64,000 nucleotides of DNA from Pseudomonadota bacterium (GCA_040752855.1 JBFMHP010000046.1:9349-73348); one strand, 5' to 3'; shown: positions 35,797 to 44,239, counted from the first letter of the stretch. Program-made: numbers and translations. Notes: generated by a model from the sequence alone, not told the origin.

Positions 35797-38700
35797 TTAC
35801 TCCGTTGTCTTGGTATGATCGCTTTGCAACATTTCCGCCACGCTCTTCGCCAAGTCACCCAAGGCGAAGGGTTTGGGGATGAATTTGGCCGGGCAAAGCT
35901 CGGCCAGCATCTGGGACACATGCGCATCGGTGAAACCGCTGCACAGAATGACCGGCAGCCCGGGGCGCTGTCGTCTGATTTCGCGCAACAGCTCGGCGCC
36001 GGTCATCCCCGGCATCATCTGATCGGTGATCGCCAGATCAAACCGGGCGGGATTCCGCTGGAACAGCGCGAGCGCGCGGCGCGGATCGCTTTCGATCTCA
36101 ACCTTATACCCCGCGCGTTCCAGCCCGCGCTTGACCATCGCGCCCAGCGCCGCCTCGTCGTCGACAAACAGCAGGCGCCCGGCGTGGACCGGCGGCGCGG
36201 CCGGCGATGCGACCTGATCCGCGCTGGTGCCGTGCGGGGCGGCGAGCGGCAGGTAGATTTCAAATCGCGCGCCGCCGGCCGCGCGATTCTCCACCCGGAT
36301 GCACCCGTGGGCCGCGGTGACCACCCCGTGCACCACCGCCAGCCCCATGCCGGTGCCCTCGCCCACGCCTTTGGTGGTGAAGAAGGGTTCGAAGATGCGT
36401 TCCCGGATCGCCTCGGGCACGCCCGGCCCGGTGTCTTCGACCACCAGCGCGAGATATTCCTCCGCACCCGCTCCCGCGCACGACGGCGGGAAAGGCACGT
36501 CGCCCGCGGCAACGCGCTCGAGCGACACATACAACTCACCTTGCTGCCCCATCGCCTGCGCCGCGTTGATCGCCAGGTTCATCACCACCTGATCGAGCTG
36601 AACCGGGTCCATCTCCACCCACAGCTCAGTGGCGTTGATGCGCGTTTCGATGCCGACCGAAACGGGCAAGGTGGCGCGGATCATGCGCAGACATTCCTTC
36701 ACCACCGTCTCGGCCTGGAAATGCCGCTTTTCGTGCTGGGTGCGCCGGCTGAAGGCCAGGATCTGCTTGACCAGTTCCTTGGCGCGCTGGCCCGCGGCCA
36801 TCACTTCCTTCAGATGGTCACGCGCCTGACTGGCGGCGGGAAGATCATCGAGCGCCAAATCAGAGTAGCCGATGATCGCGGTGAGAATATTGTTGAAGTC
36901 ATGCGCGATCCCGCCGGCCAGACGGCCGATCGCCTCCATTTTTTGCGACTGCAGTCCGCGCTCCTGGCGCAGGATCTCATCGGTGATATCGCGCGCCACG
37001 CCGACATAGTGCCGGCCTTTTTCCGTGTCGATGGGCGAGATACTCAAAAAGAATGTGCGCTCTTCATTGTGCAGCGTCACCCCGAGCCGGCCGCTCCAGC
37101 CGCCGCCCTCTCCCAGCCGCTCCCAGACATCCTTGCAGTGATCCGGCGCACGTTTAAGCGCCACAAACAGATCGGCCTCGCGGTCGAGCACCTCCGCCAT
37201 CTCTTTGCGCACCAACACGGCGTAGGACGGATTGGCGTACTCGATCACGCCATCGGTCGTGGTAATGAAGATCCCTTCGCTCGACTGAGCGACGGCGGAG
37301 GCAAGGACCTGGTTTTCCTCCTCAACCTTCACCCGCTCCGTGACATCGCGCGCAACCATCAGCACACCTTTGCGCGCGCCATCGTCGTGCAAGATCGGCA
37401 CGTACAGCAGATCGAACAGCGCGCGCCCGTAAACCGTGGCAAATTCCACGCCATAATGGCTGACGCCGCCCTCTTCCCAGAGCTTGCCGGGCAACTCATA
37501 GTGCGGGAGGCGTTCGCGCAGGATTTCGCTACAATCGGCCAGCTCTCGCAACGTTCGTTCACGATAATCGACATTCAGCATGTCGAGATTGCGCAACAGC
37601 ACCTTGTTGGCGATCAGCCAGCGGCCCTCGGCATCGAGCAGGCACACCTCGGCCGGCAGCGCGTGCACCAGGGTGTTGAGCCAATGCTCGTGTTCGCACA
37701 GCGCCTGTTCGGTTTCCTTGATACGCGTGATATCGGTGCGCAAGGCAAGATAGCGCTCGGGCCGGCCCTGGACATCGAGAAACGGCACGATGGTGGTGGC
37801 GACCCAGTAGAAGCGGCCGTCCTTGCGCCGGTTGCAAACCTCGCCATGCCAGACCTCGCCGCGCGCAATGACCCGCCACAGCTCATGGAAAAATGTCCGC
37901 GGATGGTGGCCGGAATTGACGATGCGGTGATCCCGCCCCAGCAGCTCCGCGCGCGAGTATTGCGATATCTCGCAGAACTTGTCGTTGACATAGGTGATGC
38001 GGCCGGCGGCATCCGTCATCGCTACGATGGCGTGCTGATCGAAGGCATACTTCAGGCGGTGCAGCTCGGCGACGGTCTGCTGCATATCGGTGTTGATGGC
38101 CTCGATCTCGCGCTGACGCCTACGCATGATGGTAAACACCCCGCCCACGAACACGATGAACCAGAAAACGTCCACCGCCACGAACGTCATCCGGTGCTCG
38201 CGCTCCAGCGCCCGCCAGTCGGCCAGGATGTCATCGGTCAAGGCCCAGGTCCGGTCATGGAGATCCTGCAGGCCGGCGCGCACCTGGGCCGTTTCACCGC
38301 CGGAGACGGTTGCGCTGAGCCCCAGCAGCTCGCTCCATTGCCGCAGCGACGTGGCGATCGCCTGGAGATCCGCGATGTAATGCTCGGCATCGAGCATCTT
38401 ATGATCCCAACCGGCTTCCAGCGCCTCATCCACCTGCCGCCGCGCCTGGCGCAGACCTTGGATCGCCTGCGCCAAGTCGGCGTCATCGCCATCGCGATAC
38501 TCCGCATAAAGCAGGTGCGCGCGCGTCATTTCGTGCCGCACCTCGTACATCAGCTGCGTCAGCACGGCGTTGGCGTGCGACAACCGCCCGCTGGTCCAGT
38601 GGGAAAAGTACACCAGCAGCAAACCGCTCATACCGAGACAGATCAACCATTGCAGAAACAGGGTCGCCTCGCGCCCGGCCGCAGCCCCCATCGGCCGCGC

Positions 38701-39447
38701 GGCGCCATCGGCCGGCGCGCTGCGCAGCAGAAACGGCACGATGCCCGCCGCCAGCGTCACCATGAGGATGACGAGGTAGAACAATACTGTGCCGGAGACG
38801 CCGGAGGCCGCGGGCGCGGTTCCCGGCGCGCCCGCGGGGCCCATGAACATCAGGCCGGACATCGCGGTGTAGTGCACCGCGCCGATGCCGAGGCCCAGCA
38901 TCGCGGCGGCGATGACGTGATAGCGCCGCTTGACGGCCGGCGCATCGCTTTCGATGAACTTGAGCGAAAAGCTCATGACCAGGTGACTGACGACGATCCC
39001 GACCAGCAATGCCAGCCCGATGACCCAGGGATCGTGATGCATGTCGTGCATCGTCCGGAGGGCGAGCATCCCGCTGTAATGCATCCCGGCGATGGTCAGC
39101 GCCAGGGCCAGGCTGCCGCCCATCCATTGCAACACCCCGAGCCGGCGCCGGCTGAGCAGATACACCGTGAGCACCGCGCCCAGGATCGCCACCAGCAGCG
39201 AAAGCAAGGTCGCGCCCACCGCGTAGGTCGCCAGCACCGGGAGCTCGTAGGCCACCATGCCAATGAAGTGCATCATCCAGATCGACAACCCCAGGGTAAT
39301 GGCGCTGGCCAACACCCCTCCATAGCTCCCCGCCGCGGTTCTCTGCAGGCCCCGCTGCAGCAGGCTCAGGGCAAAATACGCGCCGGTCACCGCTATCAGC
39401 AATGACAGGGCGACGAGCAGCGGATCGTAGGTACCATGAATCGGCAT
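35797..39447 (-). CDS. Hybrid histidine kinase MHYT-helical sensor-PAS x3-HisKA-HATPase-REC
   Basis: MHFIGM/MHYSGM/VHYTAM repeats, PAS motifs, GGIAHDFNNILT, FFTTKGVGEGTGMGL, FVDDE...ITDQMMP. Confidence 0.92.
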   Translation of the reverse strand: MPIHGTYDPLLVALSLLIAVTGAYFALSLLQRGLQRTAAGSYGGVLASAITLGLSIWMMHFIGMVAYELPVLATYAVGATLLSLLVAILGAVLTVYLLSRRRLGVLQWMGGSLALALTIAGMHYSGMLALRTMHDMHHDPWVIGLALLVGIVVSHLVMSFSLKFIESDAPAVKRRYHVIAAAMLGLGIGAVHYTAMSGLMFMGPAGAPGTAPAASGVSGTVLFYLVILMVTLAAGIVPFLLRSAPADGAARPMGAAAGREATLFLQWLICLGMSGLLLVYFSHWTSGRLSHANAVLTQLMYEVRHEMTRAHLLYAEYRDGDDADLAQAIQGLRQARRQVDEALEAGWDHKMLDAEHYIADLQAIATSLRQWSELLGLSATVSGGETAQVRAGLQDLHDRTWALTDDILADWRALEREHRMTFVAVDVFWFIVFVGGVFTIMRRRQREIEAINTDMQQTVAELHRLKYAFDQHAIVAMTDAAGRITYVNDKFCEISQYSRAELLGRDHRIVNSGHHPRTFFHELWRVIARGEVWHGEVCNRRKDGRFYWVATTIVPFLDVQGRPERYLALRTDITRIKETEQALCEHEHWLNTLVHALPAEVCLLDAEGRWLIANKVLLRNLDMLNVDYRERTLRELADCSEILRERLPHYELPGKLWEEGGVSHYGVEFATVYGRALFDLLYVPILHDDGARKGVLMVARDVTERVKVEEENQVLASAVAQSSEGIFITTTDGVIEYANPSYAVLVRKEMAEVLDREADLFVALKRAPDHCKDVWERLGEGGGWSGRLGVTLHNEERTFFLSISPIDTEKGRHYVGVARDITDEILRQERGLQSQKMEAIGRLAGGIAHDFNNILTAIIGYSDLALDDLPAASQARDHLKEVMAAGQRAKELVKQILAFSRRTQHEKRHFQAETVVKECLRMIRATLPVSVGIETRINATELWVEMDPVQLDQVVMNLAINAAQAMGQQGELYVSLERVAAGDVPFPPSCAGAGAEEYLALVVEDTGPGVPEAIRERIFEPFFTTKGVGEGTGMGLAVVHGVVTAAHGCIRVENRAAGGARFEIYLPLAAPHGTSADQVASPAAPPVHAGRLLFVDDEAALGAMVKRGLERAGYKVEIESDPRRALALFQRNPARFDLAITDQMMPGMTGAELLREIRRQRPGLPVILCSGFTDAHVSQMLAELCPAKFIPKPFALGDLAKSVAEMLQSDHTKTTE

Positions 39448-41684: not shown

Positions 41685-44048
41685 TTAAGGCAACTGCCCG
41701 CATGCATCGTCCATGCTGATGCCGCCACCTTCGCAGTTGCTCGCCTGCCAGTTACCGCTGGTGGCAAAGCTGTAGATCGCCAATGAGGCCCCGTAATAAT
41801 AGGGCGGCGCGACAAGCGGCGCCCGGCCATCATTAGTCGCCGGAAGACCATTCGAGCCACGCACCAGAGTGATTCGGCTGCCTATCGGATAAGGCACGCC
41901 GCTCGGTTGCAGCGCCTCCGGGCCAATGTCGTTCAGGTTGACCAGCAGCGCCTTGTTCTTCCAGCCGTGCGGCACCGCGACATGGCACCACATGCAGCGC
42001 ATATTGCCCATCTTGTCCACATGCAGGGCATGCAGATTATCCCCGCCGCCGCTGAACCCCGTCGTGGTGGGGCTGTTCCGGTAGGTGGTAGTGGCGTACA
42101 CATCATAGTTGTGACACTTGAAACACAGGTCATCCTGCTGATTCTGGCCGGTGCTCGGGGTCCAATCGCCCTTGAGGATGAAGGGTTTGGTCGAACCGTG
42201 CGGACCCCAGTTATCCCCCGCGCCGGGAGTGCTCGTGCCGTTGGCCGTGGCCACCCCGTGGCAGTCGGAACAGTACATGGTCTGGGTACCGACGTCGGTC
42301 GTGCCGTTCCACGGAGCGAGGAAGGAGTTGACGGTGGCGTGGGTCATGGTACGCGTGGTCTTGTTGCGGCCGGTCGCGCCAATCACCGGATGCCAGCTGC
42401 GGTGATTGTTGGCCTGGTTGGTATACATGGCGCTGGCGCCGGTGTTGCCCACCGAGTTCACGGGCGCAAATTCCTTGGCTTGGTCGGTATACGTTGTGAC
42501 GCCGCTCAAAATTCCGTTGTTCTCCCCCGAACCTCCGATGGTGTTGCCAAAAAGCGGGGGCGTCGTGCCGAAGGCATAGGACGAGTGGCACTTCAGGCAC
42601 ACTTGATACTCCTTGGAGACGGCATCCGCCCCCAGCCCCTTCTTCACCGTGTAACCGCTGGCCTGATCCAGCACCGTATCAAAGGCCATGCTGCCGCCAT
42701 AAATCGGCTCCACCCCCCAGGACCCACGCAGCACGCCGGAGGCCTCATTGGTATGGCCGGCGGCATGGTTGTGGGTGGCGCTGGTATTCAAGCCACCCAG
42801 ATCGGCCTGGGTGTTGTTGGCCACGCGGTGCGGATTGTGGCAATCGGTGCACTCGGCGTGACGCATGCTGCTGTCATTGTTTGGCCCGGAAAGCGTGTTG
42901 TTCACGCCCGCGTTGGATTCGGTGAGATCGGCATTTCGCACGTTGTGATGCTCGGGATCACTTGCCCCGAGTCCCTGATCGCTGTTACTGATCGGCATGC
43001 GGTAGGCGAGCGAAAAATCCTTTTGCATGTTCGGCACTTGGCTCACATCGGTCAACACCGTGGTAGAGCTGTTGCCATGGCACTGGTAGCAGGTGTTCTC
43101 CGTCCCCGCCTGGCGCTGCAGGCGCTGAGCGCCCTGCACGGTGTGCGGATCATGGCAGTTCAGGCAGGCGGCGCGGTAGACCGGAAGTCCCCGGGGAAAT
43201 CCACGCGCATCCGCGGCGGCATCGGTATAGGTTTCGGTAGCGATTGCGCTCGAGGCATGCGACGAACCCACCCAGCCGTTCTTGTCGTGGCAGGCGATGC
43301 AGATGATGTCATTGCTCGTATTGAATGCGCCGTCCGACGGGGCCACCGTGCTCTGGAAGCGGTTGAGGCGCAGGAACTTGATGTCCTCGCCGCTGCTGTC
43401 GCGGATATGCGGATCGTGGCAGGAGGCGCACTCGACCTTGCCGTTGTTGAGCGGCACGGTCAACACGCTGCGGTCGTGGCCGGGGGTGGGATCGCCGATA
43501 TGCGCGGCCGTCGCCGGATCGAACAGCTCGCCATCGCTGGCGGCCAGCGCGCTGTCGAAGGTGATCGAGATGGGATGATCGTTGGTCAGATCGGTCCCCA
43601 GCATGGCGTTGCCGGTGAGCTTGTCGACACCGCCCGCCATGGTGATGCCGCTGCCGGTGCCGCTGCCGGGCGCATTGTTCACTGCGCCGAGGGCCTGGGT
43701 GCCGTCATGACAGGTCAGGCACAGCTTGGAGGGGTTGGCGATATCGGTGATCGTGCCGGCCTGCATCGACCCCGAGCCATAGATGGCATAGGTGCCGGAG
43801 GCTGGGATCGTCCGGTTCCACAGCGGTGCGCCCTCGGCCGTCGCCGCCCCGTGCGGGGTGTGGCAGAACACGCAGATACCGGATTCGCCGGCCGCCTTGA
43901 ATGAAGTGGTGGTGCTGCCGGCCGACAGGTTATGTTTGGTATTGGTGATATCCGAGATGCGGGCGGCCTGGGCTGGATGGCAAAGGGCCAGCGTAGCTAA
44001 CACCGCGCAAACGATCGACCTCCGCCCCGTAATCACCCCACTGCGCAT
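41685..44048 (-). CDS. Secreted 11-heme c-type cytochrome with OmcE-like N-terminal tetraheme module
   Basis: Signal peptide ending AQA; 11 CxxCH motifs counted; ATG at 44048 preceded by GAGG. Confidence 0.9.
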   Translation of the reverse strand: MRSGVITGRRSIVCAVLATLALCHPAQAARISDITNTKHNLSAGSTTTSFKAAGESGICVFCHTPHGAATAEGAPLWNRTIPASGTYAIYGSGSMQAGTITDIANPSKLCLTCHDGTQALGAVNNAPGSGTGSGITMAGGVDKLTGNAMLGTDLTNDHPISITFDSALAASDGELFDPATAAHIGDPTPGHDRSVLTVPLNNGKVECASCHDPHIRDSSGEDIKFLRLNRFQSTVAPSDGAFNTSNDIICIACHDKNGWVGSSHASSAIATETYTDAAADARGFPRGLPVYRAACLNCHDPHTVQGAQRLQRQAGTENTCYQCHGNSSTTVLTDVSQVPNMQKDFSLAYRMPISNSDQGLGASDPEHHNVRNADLTESNAGVNNTLSGPNNDSSMRHAECTDCHNPHRVANNTQADLGGLNTSATHNHAAGHTNEASGVLRGSWGVEPIYGGSMAFDTVLDQASGYTVKKGLGADAVSKEYQVCLKCHSSYAFGTTPPLFGNTIGGSGENNGILSGVTTYTDQAKEFAPVNSVGNTGASAMYTNQANNHRSWHPVIGATGRNKTTRTMTHATVNSFLAPWNGTTDVGTQTMYCSDCHGVATANGTSTPGAGDNWGPHGSTKPFILKGDWTPSTGQNQQDDLCFKCHNYDVYATTTYRNSPTTTGFSGGGDNLHALHVDKMGNMRCMWCHVAVPHGWKNKALLVNLNDIGPEALQPSGVPYPIGSRITLVRGSNGLPATNDGRAPLVAPPYYYGASLAIYSFATSGNWQASNCEGGGISMDDACGQLP

Positions 44049-44103
44049 CACTTTTACCTCAAAAATCAATCAAATAAAAACATTTGCGCACGGTCGCGCA
44101 AGT

Positions 44104-44124
44104 TTTATCACAATTAGTGATAAA
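44104..44124. promoter_or_regulatory. Perfect palindromic operator candidate
   Basis: TTTATCAC-AATTA-GTGATAAA between divergent genes. Confidence 0.55.
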
Positions 44125-44239
44125 TAGATCGGCATCACGGATGAAAGATTGAGCCGGAGCGTCCAAAGGGGTGAATGGTAGTGGCCAATGGCGGTAGTCG
44201 TGTAACATAACCCTCCCGTTTTGACTGGATAACCGCTTC

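Follow-up and report, generated by a model that had tools for sequence, protein, structure and literature searches.

The sequence analyzed here is a 64,000-nucleotide stretch of a Pseudomonadota genome (GCA_040752855.1 JBFMHP010000046.1:9349-73348; the window), one part of an assembly of 3.52 Mb in 46 contigs. It carries on the minus strand, between positions 41685 and 44048, a frame of 787 codons that is free of internal stops and encodes an undecaheme c-type cytochrome. On sequence grounds, the protein is a member of the known, named UetJ family ("undecaheme electron transfer") and not a new kind of cytochrome, and the OmcE nanowire subunit has a complete homolog in its first ∼230 mature residues. 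The gene and its parts are as follows.

41685..44048, minus strand: uetJ-family undecaheme cytochrome gene, orphan copy, 787 amino acids (aa) plus stop; open frame, eleven CxxCH sites, full-length homologs at 46-73% identity
43965..44048, minus strand: predicted Sec signal peptide, residues 1-28, cleavage between AQA and A, no lipobox; by inspection, and the OmcE signal peptide aligns to residues 1-28
43263..43964, minus strand: OmcE-like tetraheme module, residues 29-262, hemes 1-4, distal His 39, 66, 158, and 214; PDB matches, OmcE alignment, invariant columns
41688..43262, minus strand: seven-heme extension, residues 263-787, hemes 5-11, ten further invariant His, C772/C783; translation and family alignment

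A first-pass annotation made from the DNA alone had listed eleven CxxCH motifs, and all are present exactly as listed: CVFCH (residues 59-63), CLTCH (110-114), CASCH (207-211), CIACH (250-254), CLNCH (295-299), CYQCH (320-324), CTDCH (400-404), CLKCH (484-488), CSDCH (593-597), CFKCH (642-646), and CMWCH (685-689). Alignment of 150 homologs showed all 11 sites to be invariant, which places the motif set far beyond chance. At least 14 further His outside these motifs are invariant in the same alignment, enough for bis-His ligation at every heme, and the orphan copy retains every family-invariant residue, which argues that it is under selection. The pair of Cys noted near the C terminus corresponds to C772 and C783, which are invariant or nearly so in family alignments. 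The N terminus, MRSGVITGRRSIVCAVLATLALCHPAQA up to the cleavage point and AR after it, has a basic n-region and a hydrophobic core; by inspection, it has the look of a Sec/signal peptidase I substrate, in keeping with the earlier description of a Sec signal that lacks a lipobox.

The resemblance of the first four-heme segment to Geobacter OmcE, noted in the first-pass annotation, was borne out. In a phmmer search of all PDB chains, residues 11 to 227 matched the G. sulfurreducens OmcE filament (7tfs_A; E = 4.7e-35), and the D. soudanensis OmcE bundle was also matched (9yuq_N; E = 1.2e-23). Pairwise BLASTP against OmcE gave 39.8% identity over 251 columns, reaching the last OmcE residue. Since the two solved OmcE proteins share 41% identity (PMC13712944), the head is about as near to OmcE as those two are to each other. 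All four CxxCH sites and the four distal His of OmcE (GSU0618, 7TFS; D. soudanensis 9YUQ, PMC13712944) recur in order within residues 29 to 262: the series TKH, CHTPH, NDHP, and CHxxH corresponds here to H39, H66, H158, and H214 (CHDPH), and all four are invariant in the family.

OmcE, at ∼230 aa, ends two residues past its fourth heme site, whereas UetJ runs on for 525 residues and seven more hemes, as had been described for the extension behind the head. The extension begins exactly where OmcE ends, and also where UetA, an OmcE-like cytochrome of the same genome described below, ends. A sequence profile search of the PDB found no relative of the extension and returned only OmcE. An initial AlphaFold2 (AF2) model from a 40-sequence alignment reached a mean predicted local distance difference test score (pLDDT) of 40.6; a second, from 150 sequences, reached 72.3 with a predicted template modeling score (pTM) of 0.79 and was confident over the extension, where pLDDT was 80 to 91 in most blocks. 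We also considered hemes 5 to 8 as a second OmcE unit arising by internal duplication. A relaxed alignment was collinear (hhalign probability 90.7%, E = 1.2e-6), but controls scored alike: an unrelated MtrA-size decaheme of the same genome gave 81.8% (E = 1.1e-5), and the extension as a single sequence gave 75.7%. We therefore treat an internal OmcE repeat as unproven.

The cytochrome is not the isolated oddity that the first-pass annotation suggested. More than 2592 full-length homologs of ∼800 aa were found at 46-50% identity, forming 288 clusters at 50% identity (E ≤ 1e-30), and a pattern scan of genomes located relatives in 454 GTDB species. These span the Gamma-, Beta-, and Alphaproteobacteria and include Sedimenticola, Candidatus (Ca.) Thiodiazotropha, Woeseiaceae, Thiohalobacter, Rubrivivax, Hydrogenophaga, Piscinibacter, and Magnetovibrio. 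Among cultured strains, Sedimenticola hydrogenitrophicus, Inmirania thermothiophila, Rubrivivax sp. A210, Hydrogenophaga sp. RWCD_12, and Piscinibacter caeni MQ-18 carry uetJ within the cluster. To compare gene order, the flanking open reading frames (ORFs) of 80 loci were clustered and one representative was annotated with Pfam. At 70 of the 80 loci the undecaheme gene lies between the NHL-propeller genes, typically the pair uetH/I, and ccsB, in a near-fixed order: a SurA-like peptidyl-prolyl isomerase (PPIase), a ∼600-aa protein lacking a Pfam match, two c7-type trihemes, one or two ∼280-aa proteins of unknown type, two further c7 trihemes, the NHL propellers (one or two), the undecaheme, and then ResB-like and CcsA-like proteins. 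Genes for a sigma-54 regulator and a kinase often lie downstream. Every complete ORF in the UetJ slot of these loci has 11 CxxCH sites. The orphan cytochrome is 41-49% identical to the in-cluster undecahemes over 94-99% of its length and nests inside the family tree.

This order matches the published uetA-J/ccsAB order. The uetABCDEFGHIJ-ccsAB cluster has been predicted to serve extracellular electron transfer in Ca. Tenderia electrophaga and many Proteobacteria (Eddie et al. 2022, 10.1101/2022.05.06.490989); in full, the cluster of Ca. Tenderia electrophaga and other Tenderiales is given as uetABCDEFGHIJ-ccsAB-nrfG-batABD (10.1101/2022.05.06.490989). It has also been reported from Gallionella (PMC10734462) and Leptothrix (PMC13386937). 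The Tenderia undecaheme gene is described as highly expressed (Eddie et al. 2022, 10.1101/2022.05.06.490989), and on cathodes it co-clusters in expression with ACIII, NUOR, and Cyc1. Our assignment to UetJ runs through the homologs that occupy the UetJ slot and the published gene order. Like the Tenderia-type protein, the orphan has eleven CxxCH sites, ∼800 aa, and a Sec signal, and its genome holds the rest of a uet cluster; unlike it, the gene is an orphan with a paralog, and every copy in its bacterial family lies outside the cluster.

A second published system fits the same description. The 19-gene occ cluster (occA-S) of Ca. Dechloromonas occultata, with its undecaheme OccP, is expressed during Mn(III) reduction, and occ-cluster proteins were seen by proteomics in Mn(III)-reducing cultures (10.1101/695007). 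OccP, too, is an undecaheme predicted to be extracellular, encoded in a cytochrome-rich cluster with NHL-repeat proteins, and has been proposed as a terminal component of extracellular electron transfer; it differs in its length of 922 aa and in its proposed role as an Mn(III) reductase, which would carry electrons in the opposite direction (10.1101/695007). Judged from these descriptions, the UetJ and OccP families are probably one and the same. Shewanella UndA and its MtrC relatives resemble UetJ in heme count (UndA has eleven) and in a presumed role in extracellular electron transfer. The likeness stops at a 36.7-bit local Pfam match to MtrC/F domain II/IV; phmmer and profile searches of the PDB returned no UndA or MtrC match, and UetJ has no lipobox, features that set it apart from the MtrC/OmcA/UndA family. 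Among the papers searched, we found none naming both "OmcE" and "Uet," and those on Uet/UetJ make no mention of OmcE.

Several features of the wider family were seen alongside. Members of a shorter subfamily (P0219, P0236, P0245, and P0265; ∼620-750 aa, 35-40% identical) keep the OmcE head, but several of them have, in place of CYQCH at the sixth site, a long C-x(11-15)-CH stretch (e.g., CFKGAAGQSNVAPCH), which may be an unusual heme-binding motif. At locus L065, on a contig labeled "Chitinophaga pinensis" in a metagenome-assembled genome (MAG), the uet cluster nests among Burkholderiales in the tree; the contig is probably misbinned or mislabeled. Two other genomes have tandem, near-identical uetJ duplicates within or next to their uet cluster (locus L068, 7926-13082; locus L089, 5175-10337), which suggests that change in uetJ copy number is recurrent.

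The term "solitary" in the first-pass annotation holds for the locus but fails for the genome, which holds a paralog, four shorter OmcE-like cytochromes (4, 5, 5, and 6 hemes), and a uet cluster elsewhere; 32 of its ORFs have three or more CxxCH sites. The genome-wide search for conduits, a type II secretion system, and paralogs that the annotation had suggested found the cluster on contig 7 (C7), a second uetJ copy on contig 22 (C22), the type II secretion gene GspD, and three decahemes of ∼300 aa, the size of MtrA/DmsE (C6:24509, C9:134324, and C42:100337). The second uetJ copy (C22:49431-51863, 810 aa) shares 68% identity with the orphan over residues 11 to 665 and 58% over its full length by tblastn. 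The uet cluster occupies C7:93383-107016 and is complete apart from uetJ.

C7:93383-94429: NHL lipoprotein
C7:94758-95588: UetA, OmcE-like tetraheme
C7:95675-96694: PPIase
C7:96783-98540: UetC, 585 aa, porin/barrel
C7:98562, 99033, and 101358: c7 trihemes
C7:99707-101323: UetF-like protein
C7:101882-104398: NHL proteins UetH and UetI
C7:104543-105541: CcsB
C7:105551-106405: CcsA
Contig 7, downstream of CcsA: ORFs resembling System I ccm genes, by inspection only

Only 145 bp separate the end of UetI (104398) from the start of CcsB (104543), so the UetJ slot is empty. The same empty slot, with a UetI-CcsB gap of 155 to 176 bp, occurs in all five other genomes of the bacterial family in which the cluster was found; in outgroup genomes G001 and G003, uetJ is present between UetI and CcsB. 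All seven genomes of the family hold one to five dispersed uetJ copies, compared with 2 of 34 other genomes of the class. In the tree, the orphan copy pairs with that of locus L014 and the contig-22 copy with that of locus L015, both loci being from one "uncultured Chromatiales" MAG. The four form a clade with 100% support, which indicates that the uetJ duplication is older than these two species. What is new locally is the orphan position, the cluster slot left empty across the family, and the expansion of paralogs.

In the contig-22 paralog, a Gly/Met-rich insert (GMGMGMC...GGMGGGGGGMGGGGGGGQ) directly precedes heme 11. The paralog adjoins a divergent OmpR-type response regulator (C22:48241-48942), and the region upstream of the paralog is conserved with its ortholog in L015. 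Three of the OmcE-like proteins, with 5, 5, and 6 CxxCH sites (C7:120182-121024, minus; C21:169290-170402, minus; C19:104244-105260, plus), align to the UetJ head with hhalign probabilities of 99.5-99.9%. A 2026 mBio paper proposes a "5-heme OmcE-like" class as a possible new nanowire family; these three match that class, and the one on contig 7 adjoins an NHL lipoprotein. At C19:106984-109832 (minus), a 12-heme cytochrome (390 aa) and a 23-heme cytochrome (559 aa) adjoin each other, beside a 601-aa ORF and the 6-heme OmcE-like gene; they may be a PCC3-type porin-cytochrome set.

Taken together, we consider it likely that the gene encodes a Sec-exported c-type undecaheme of the UetJ family that works in trans with the contig-7 uet cluster as a heme wire at the outer membrane or outside the cell. 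Heme would be attached in the periplasm by the cluster's CcsBA or by the adjacent ccm-like (System I) genes, the latter named by inspection, and the protein could reach or cross the outer membrane by way of the UetC barrel of contig 7 or by type II secretion. UetJ might then act as a roughly linear eleven-heme wire from UetD/E/G, the c7-type trihemes of the periplasm, to a redox partner outside the cell; candidates for this partner are Fe(II), a mineral, a cathode, and UetA, the OmcE-like tetraheme. In an autotroph bearing RuBisCO, the likely direction would be electron uptake: two RuBisCO large-subunit genes in the genome, with the data from cathode-grown Tenderia, favor it. The earlier suggestion of an electron conduit, possibly for uptake, agrees with the prediction in the literature for the family.

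Several points weigh on the other side. The proposal of OccP as a reductase would fit electron flow in the reverse direction, and the orphan copy is unlinked to the cluster with which it would cooperate in trans. The OmcE-like module came out poorly in the second AF2 model (pLDDT 41-57, residues 60-160), and Foldseek comparison of that model with the PDB gave no match whatever. Neither UetJ nor OccP is known to have been purified or knocked out, function having been assigned from genomic context and from expression in other organisms.

A more specific role, which we put forward tentatively and regard as unlikely, is that UetA would build an OmcE-type filament and UetJ would be the piece dedicated to its end (an anchor, base, or cap). 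The OmcE-like head would join the last UetA through a cross-subunit His-heme bond, the extension would lead to the UetC porin and the c7 cytochromes, and the dispersed uetJ paralogs would be interchangeable end-pieces. The UetA encoded in this genome and OmcE align over their full lengths (E = 3.3e-26); UetA has exactly eight His for four hemes, as OmcE does, and ends like OmcE in C-L-x-C-H-x-K. Its ortholog was present in all 12 genomes tested, ∼9 kb upstream of uetJ where uetJ is in the cluster. The Desulfuromonadia omcE cluster contains resB, ccsB, two multiheme cytochromes, two propeller lipoproteins, OmcE, and a large barrel (PMC13712944), the same parts list as uet; this set is absent at the orphan locus, and its equivalent is on contig 7. 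According to the 2026 mBio paper, the OmcE interface leaves one heme in need of a His from the next subunit, and a protein with nine His to serve four hemes would make an ideal anchor. Residues 1 to 265 of UetJ hold nine conserved His (39, 63, 66, 114, 158, 211, 214, 254, and 264), and this count, together with an extension that starts at the OmcE C terminus, suggests that UetJ could be such an end-piece. Against this, the argument is one of sequence logic, H264 may simply ligate heme 5, and no UetA filament has ever been observed.

The broader form of this idea, which we hold to be doubtful, is that uet would be to Proteobacteria what the OmcE nanowire machine is to Geobacter: UetA would polymerize and UetJ would be the long-sought terminal or anchor subunit, its gene uncoupled from the cluster and multiplied (1-5 copies) in this bacterial family. 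If so, a single porin/filament machine could take different end-pieces, each suited to other redox partners or conditions.

It is very unlikely that UetJ itself polymerizes head to tail into a nanowire with 11 hemes per subunit, a possibility mentioned by Eddie et al. (10.1101/2022.05.06.490989). The complete OmcE-like module with all four distal His and the three or more spare invariant His would suit such a polymer. However, the interface heme of OmcE and UetA is the C-terminal one, and in UetJ that end carries the 525-residue extension with its disulfide-bearing terminal domain. That the extension starts exactly at the OmcE end argues against simple OmcE-type polymerization, and PDB profile and Foldseek searches returned no solved filament with this architecture.

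About as improbable is a periplasmic multiheme wire or electron store independent of Uet, or an enzyme with a catalytic heme: the gene is linked to no porin, the protein has no lipobox, and there are weak Pfam/NCBIfam matches to NrfB and DmsE-type periplasmic cytochromes, but these fall far under the family cutoffs (e.g., 51 versus 192 bits), all eleven CxxCH are canonical with ample conserved His, Pfam and PDB searches found no similarity to NrfA, HAO, MccA, or OTR folds, and the orthologs are embedded in a porin cluster at 70 of 80 loci. We rejected the enzyme version for the lack of a CxxCK motif and of NrfA/HAO/MccA similarity and for the ample conserved His.

As a protein, the orphan UetJ simply adds to a family that already has a name. 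Hundreds of sulfur-, iron-, and electrode-oxidizing Proteobacteria carry Uet/Occ clusters, and no component has yet been characterized. The OmcE module of UetJ, the OmcE homology of UetA, and the common parts list connect the best-understood cytochrome nanowire with an uptake-type conduit found in aerobic autotrophs. They also yield a specific structural hypothesis about the beginnings and ends of such wires, a question that the 2026 OmcE-bundle paper poses. That uetJ has moved and multiplied across a whole bacterial family amounts to a natural experiment suggesting that the undecaheme can be supplied in trans, and the paralog sets could be used for testing partner specificity.

The 5' region of the orphan gene, which is divergent from a CNNM/CorC gene, contains the following elements.

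44049..44239, minus strand: 5' intergenic region
44057-44060, minus strand: Shine-Dalgarno GAGG, 9 nt before the ATG
44084-44101, minus strand: terminator-like hairpin TTGCGCGACCGTGCGCAA, then a T-run
44105-44123, minus strand: perfect 7-5-7 palindrome TTATCAC-N5-GTGATAA

The palindrome and hairpin sit 36 to 75 nt upstream of the uetJ ATG and are not conserved upstream of the L014 ortholog. A sigma-70 scan of the region found no promoter, and there was no Rfam match.

The neighboring genes encode an Amidase_2 (AmpD-like) protein, AmpE, a His_Phos_1 phosphatase, the CNNM/CorC transporter, ArgH, and a LytS-type kinase. Their annotation confirmed the earlier statement that no porin or maturation gene adjoins the cytochrome; no propeller, barrel, or resB lies at the orphan locus. 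L014 shares the order LytS-ArgH-CNNM-[uetJ]-His_Phos-AmpE-AmpD-MHYT kinase, and so does L075 (a Thiohalomonadales MAG) up to the end of its contig. The MHYT kinase, four genes from uetJ, is an MHYT-PAS-PAS hybrid histidine kinase of 1216 aa with a receiver domain (35797-39447, minus), and the linkage of uetJ, phosphatase, AmpE, AmpD, and this kinase is kept in both L014 and L075.

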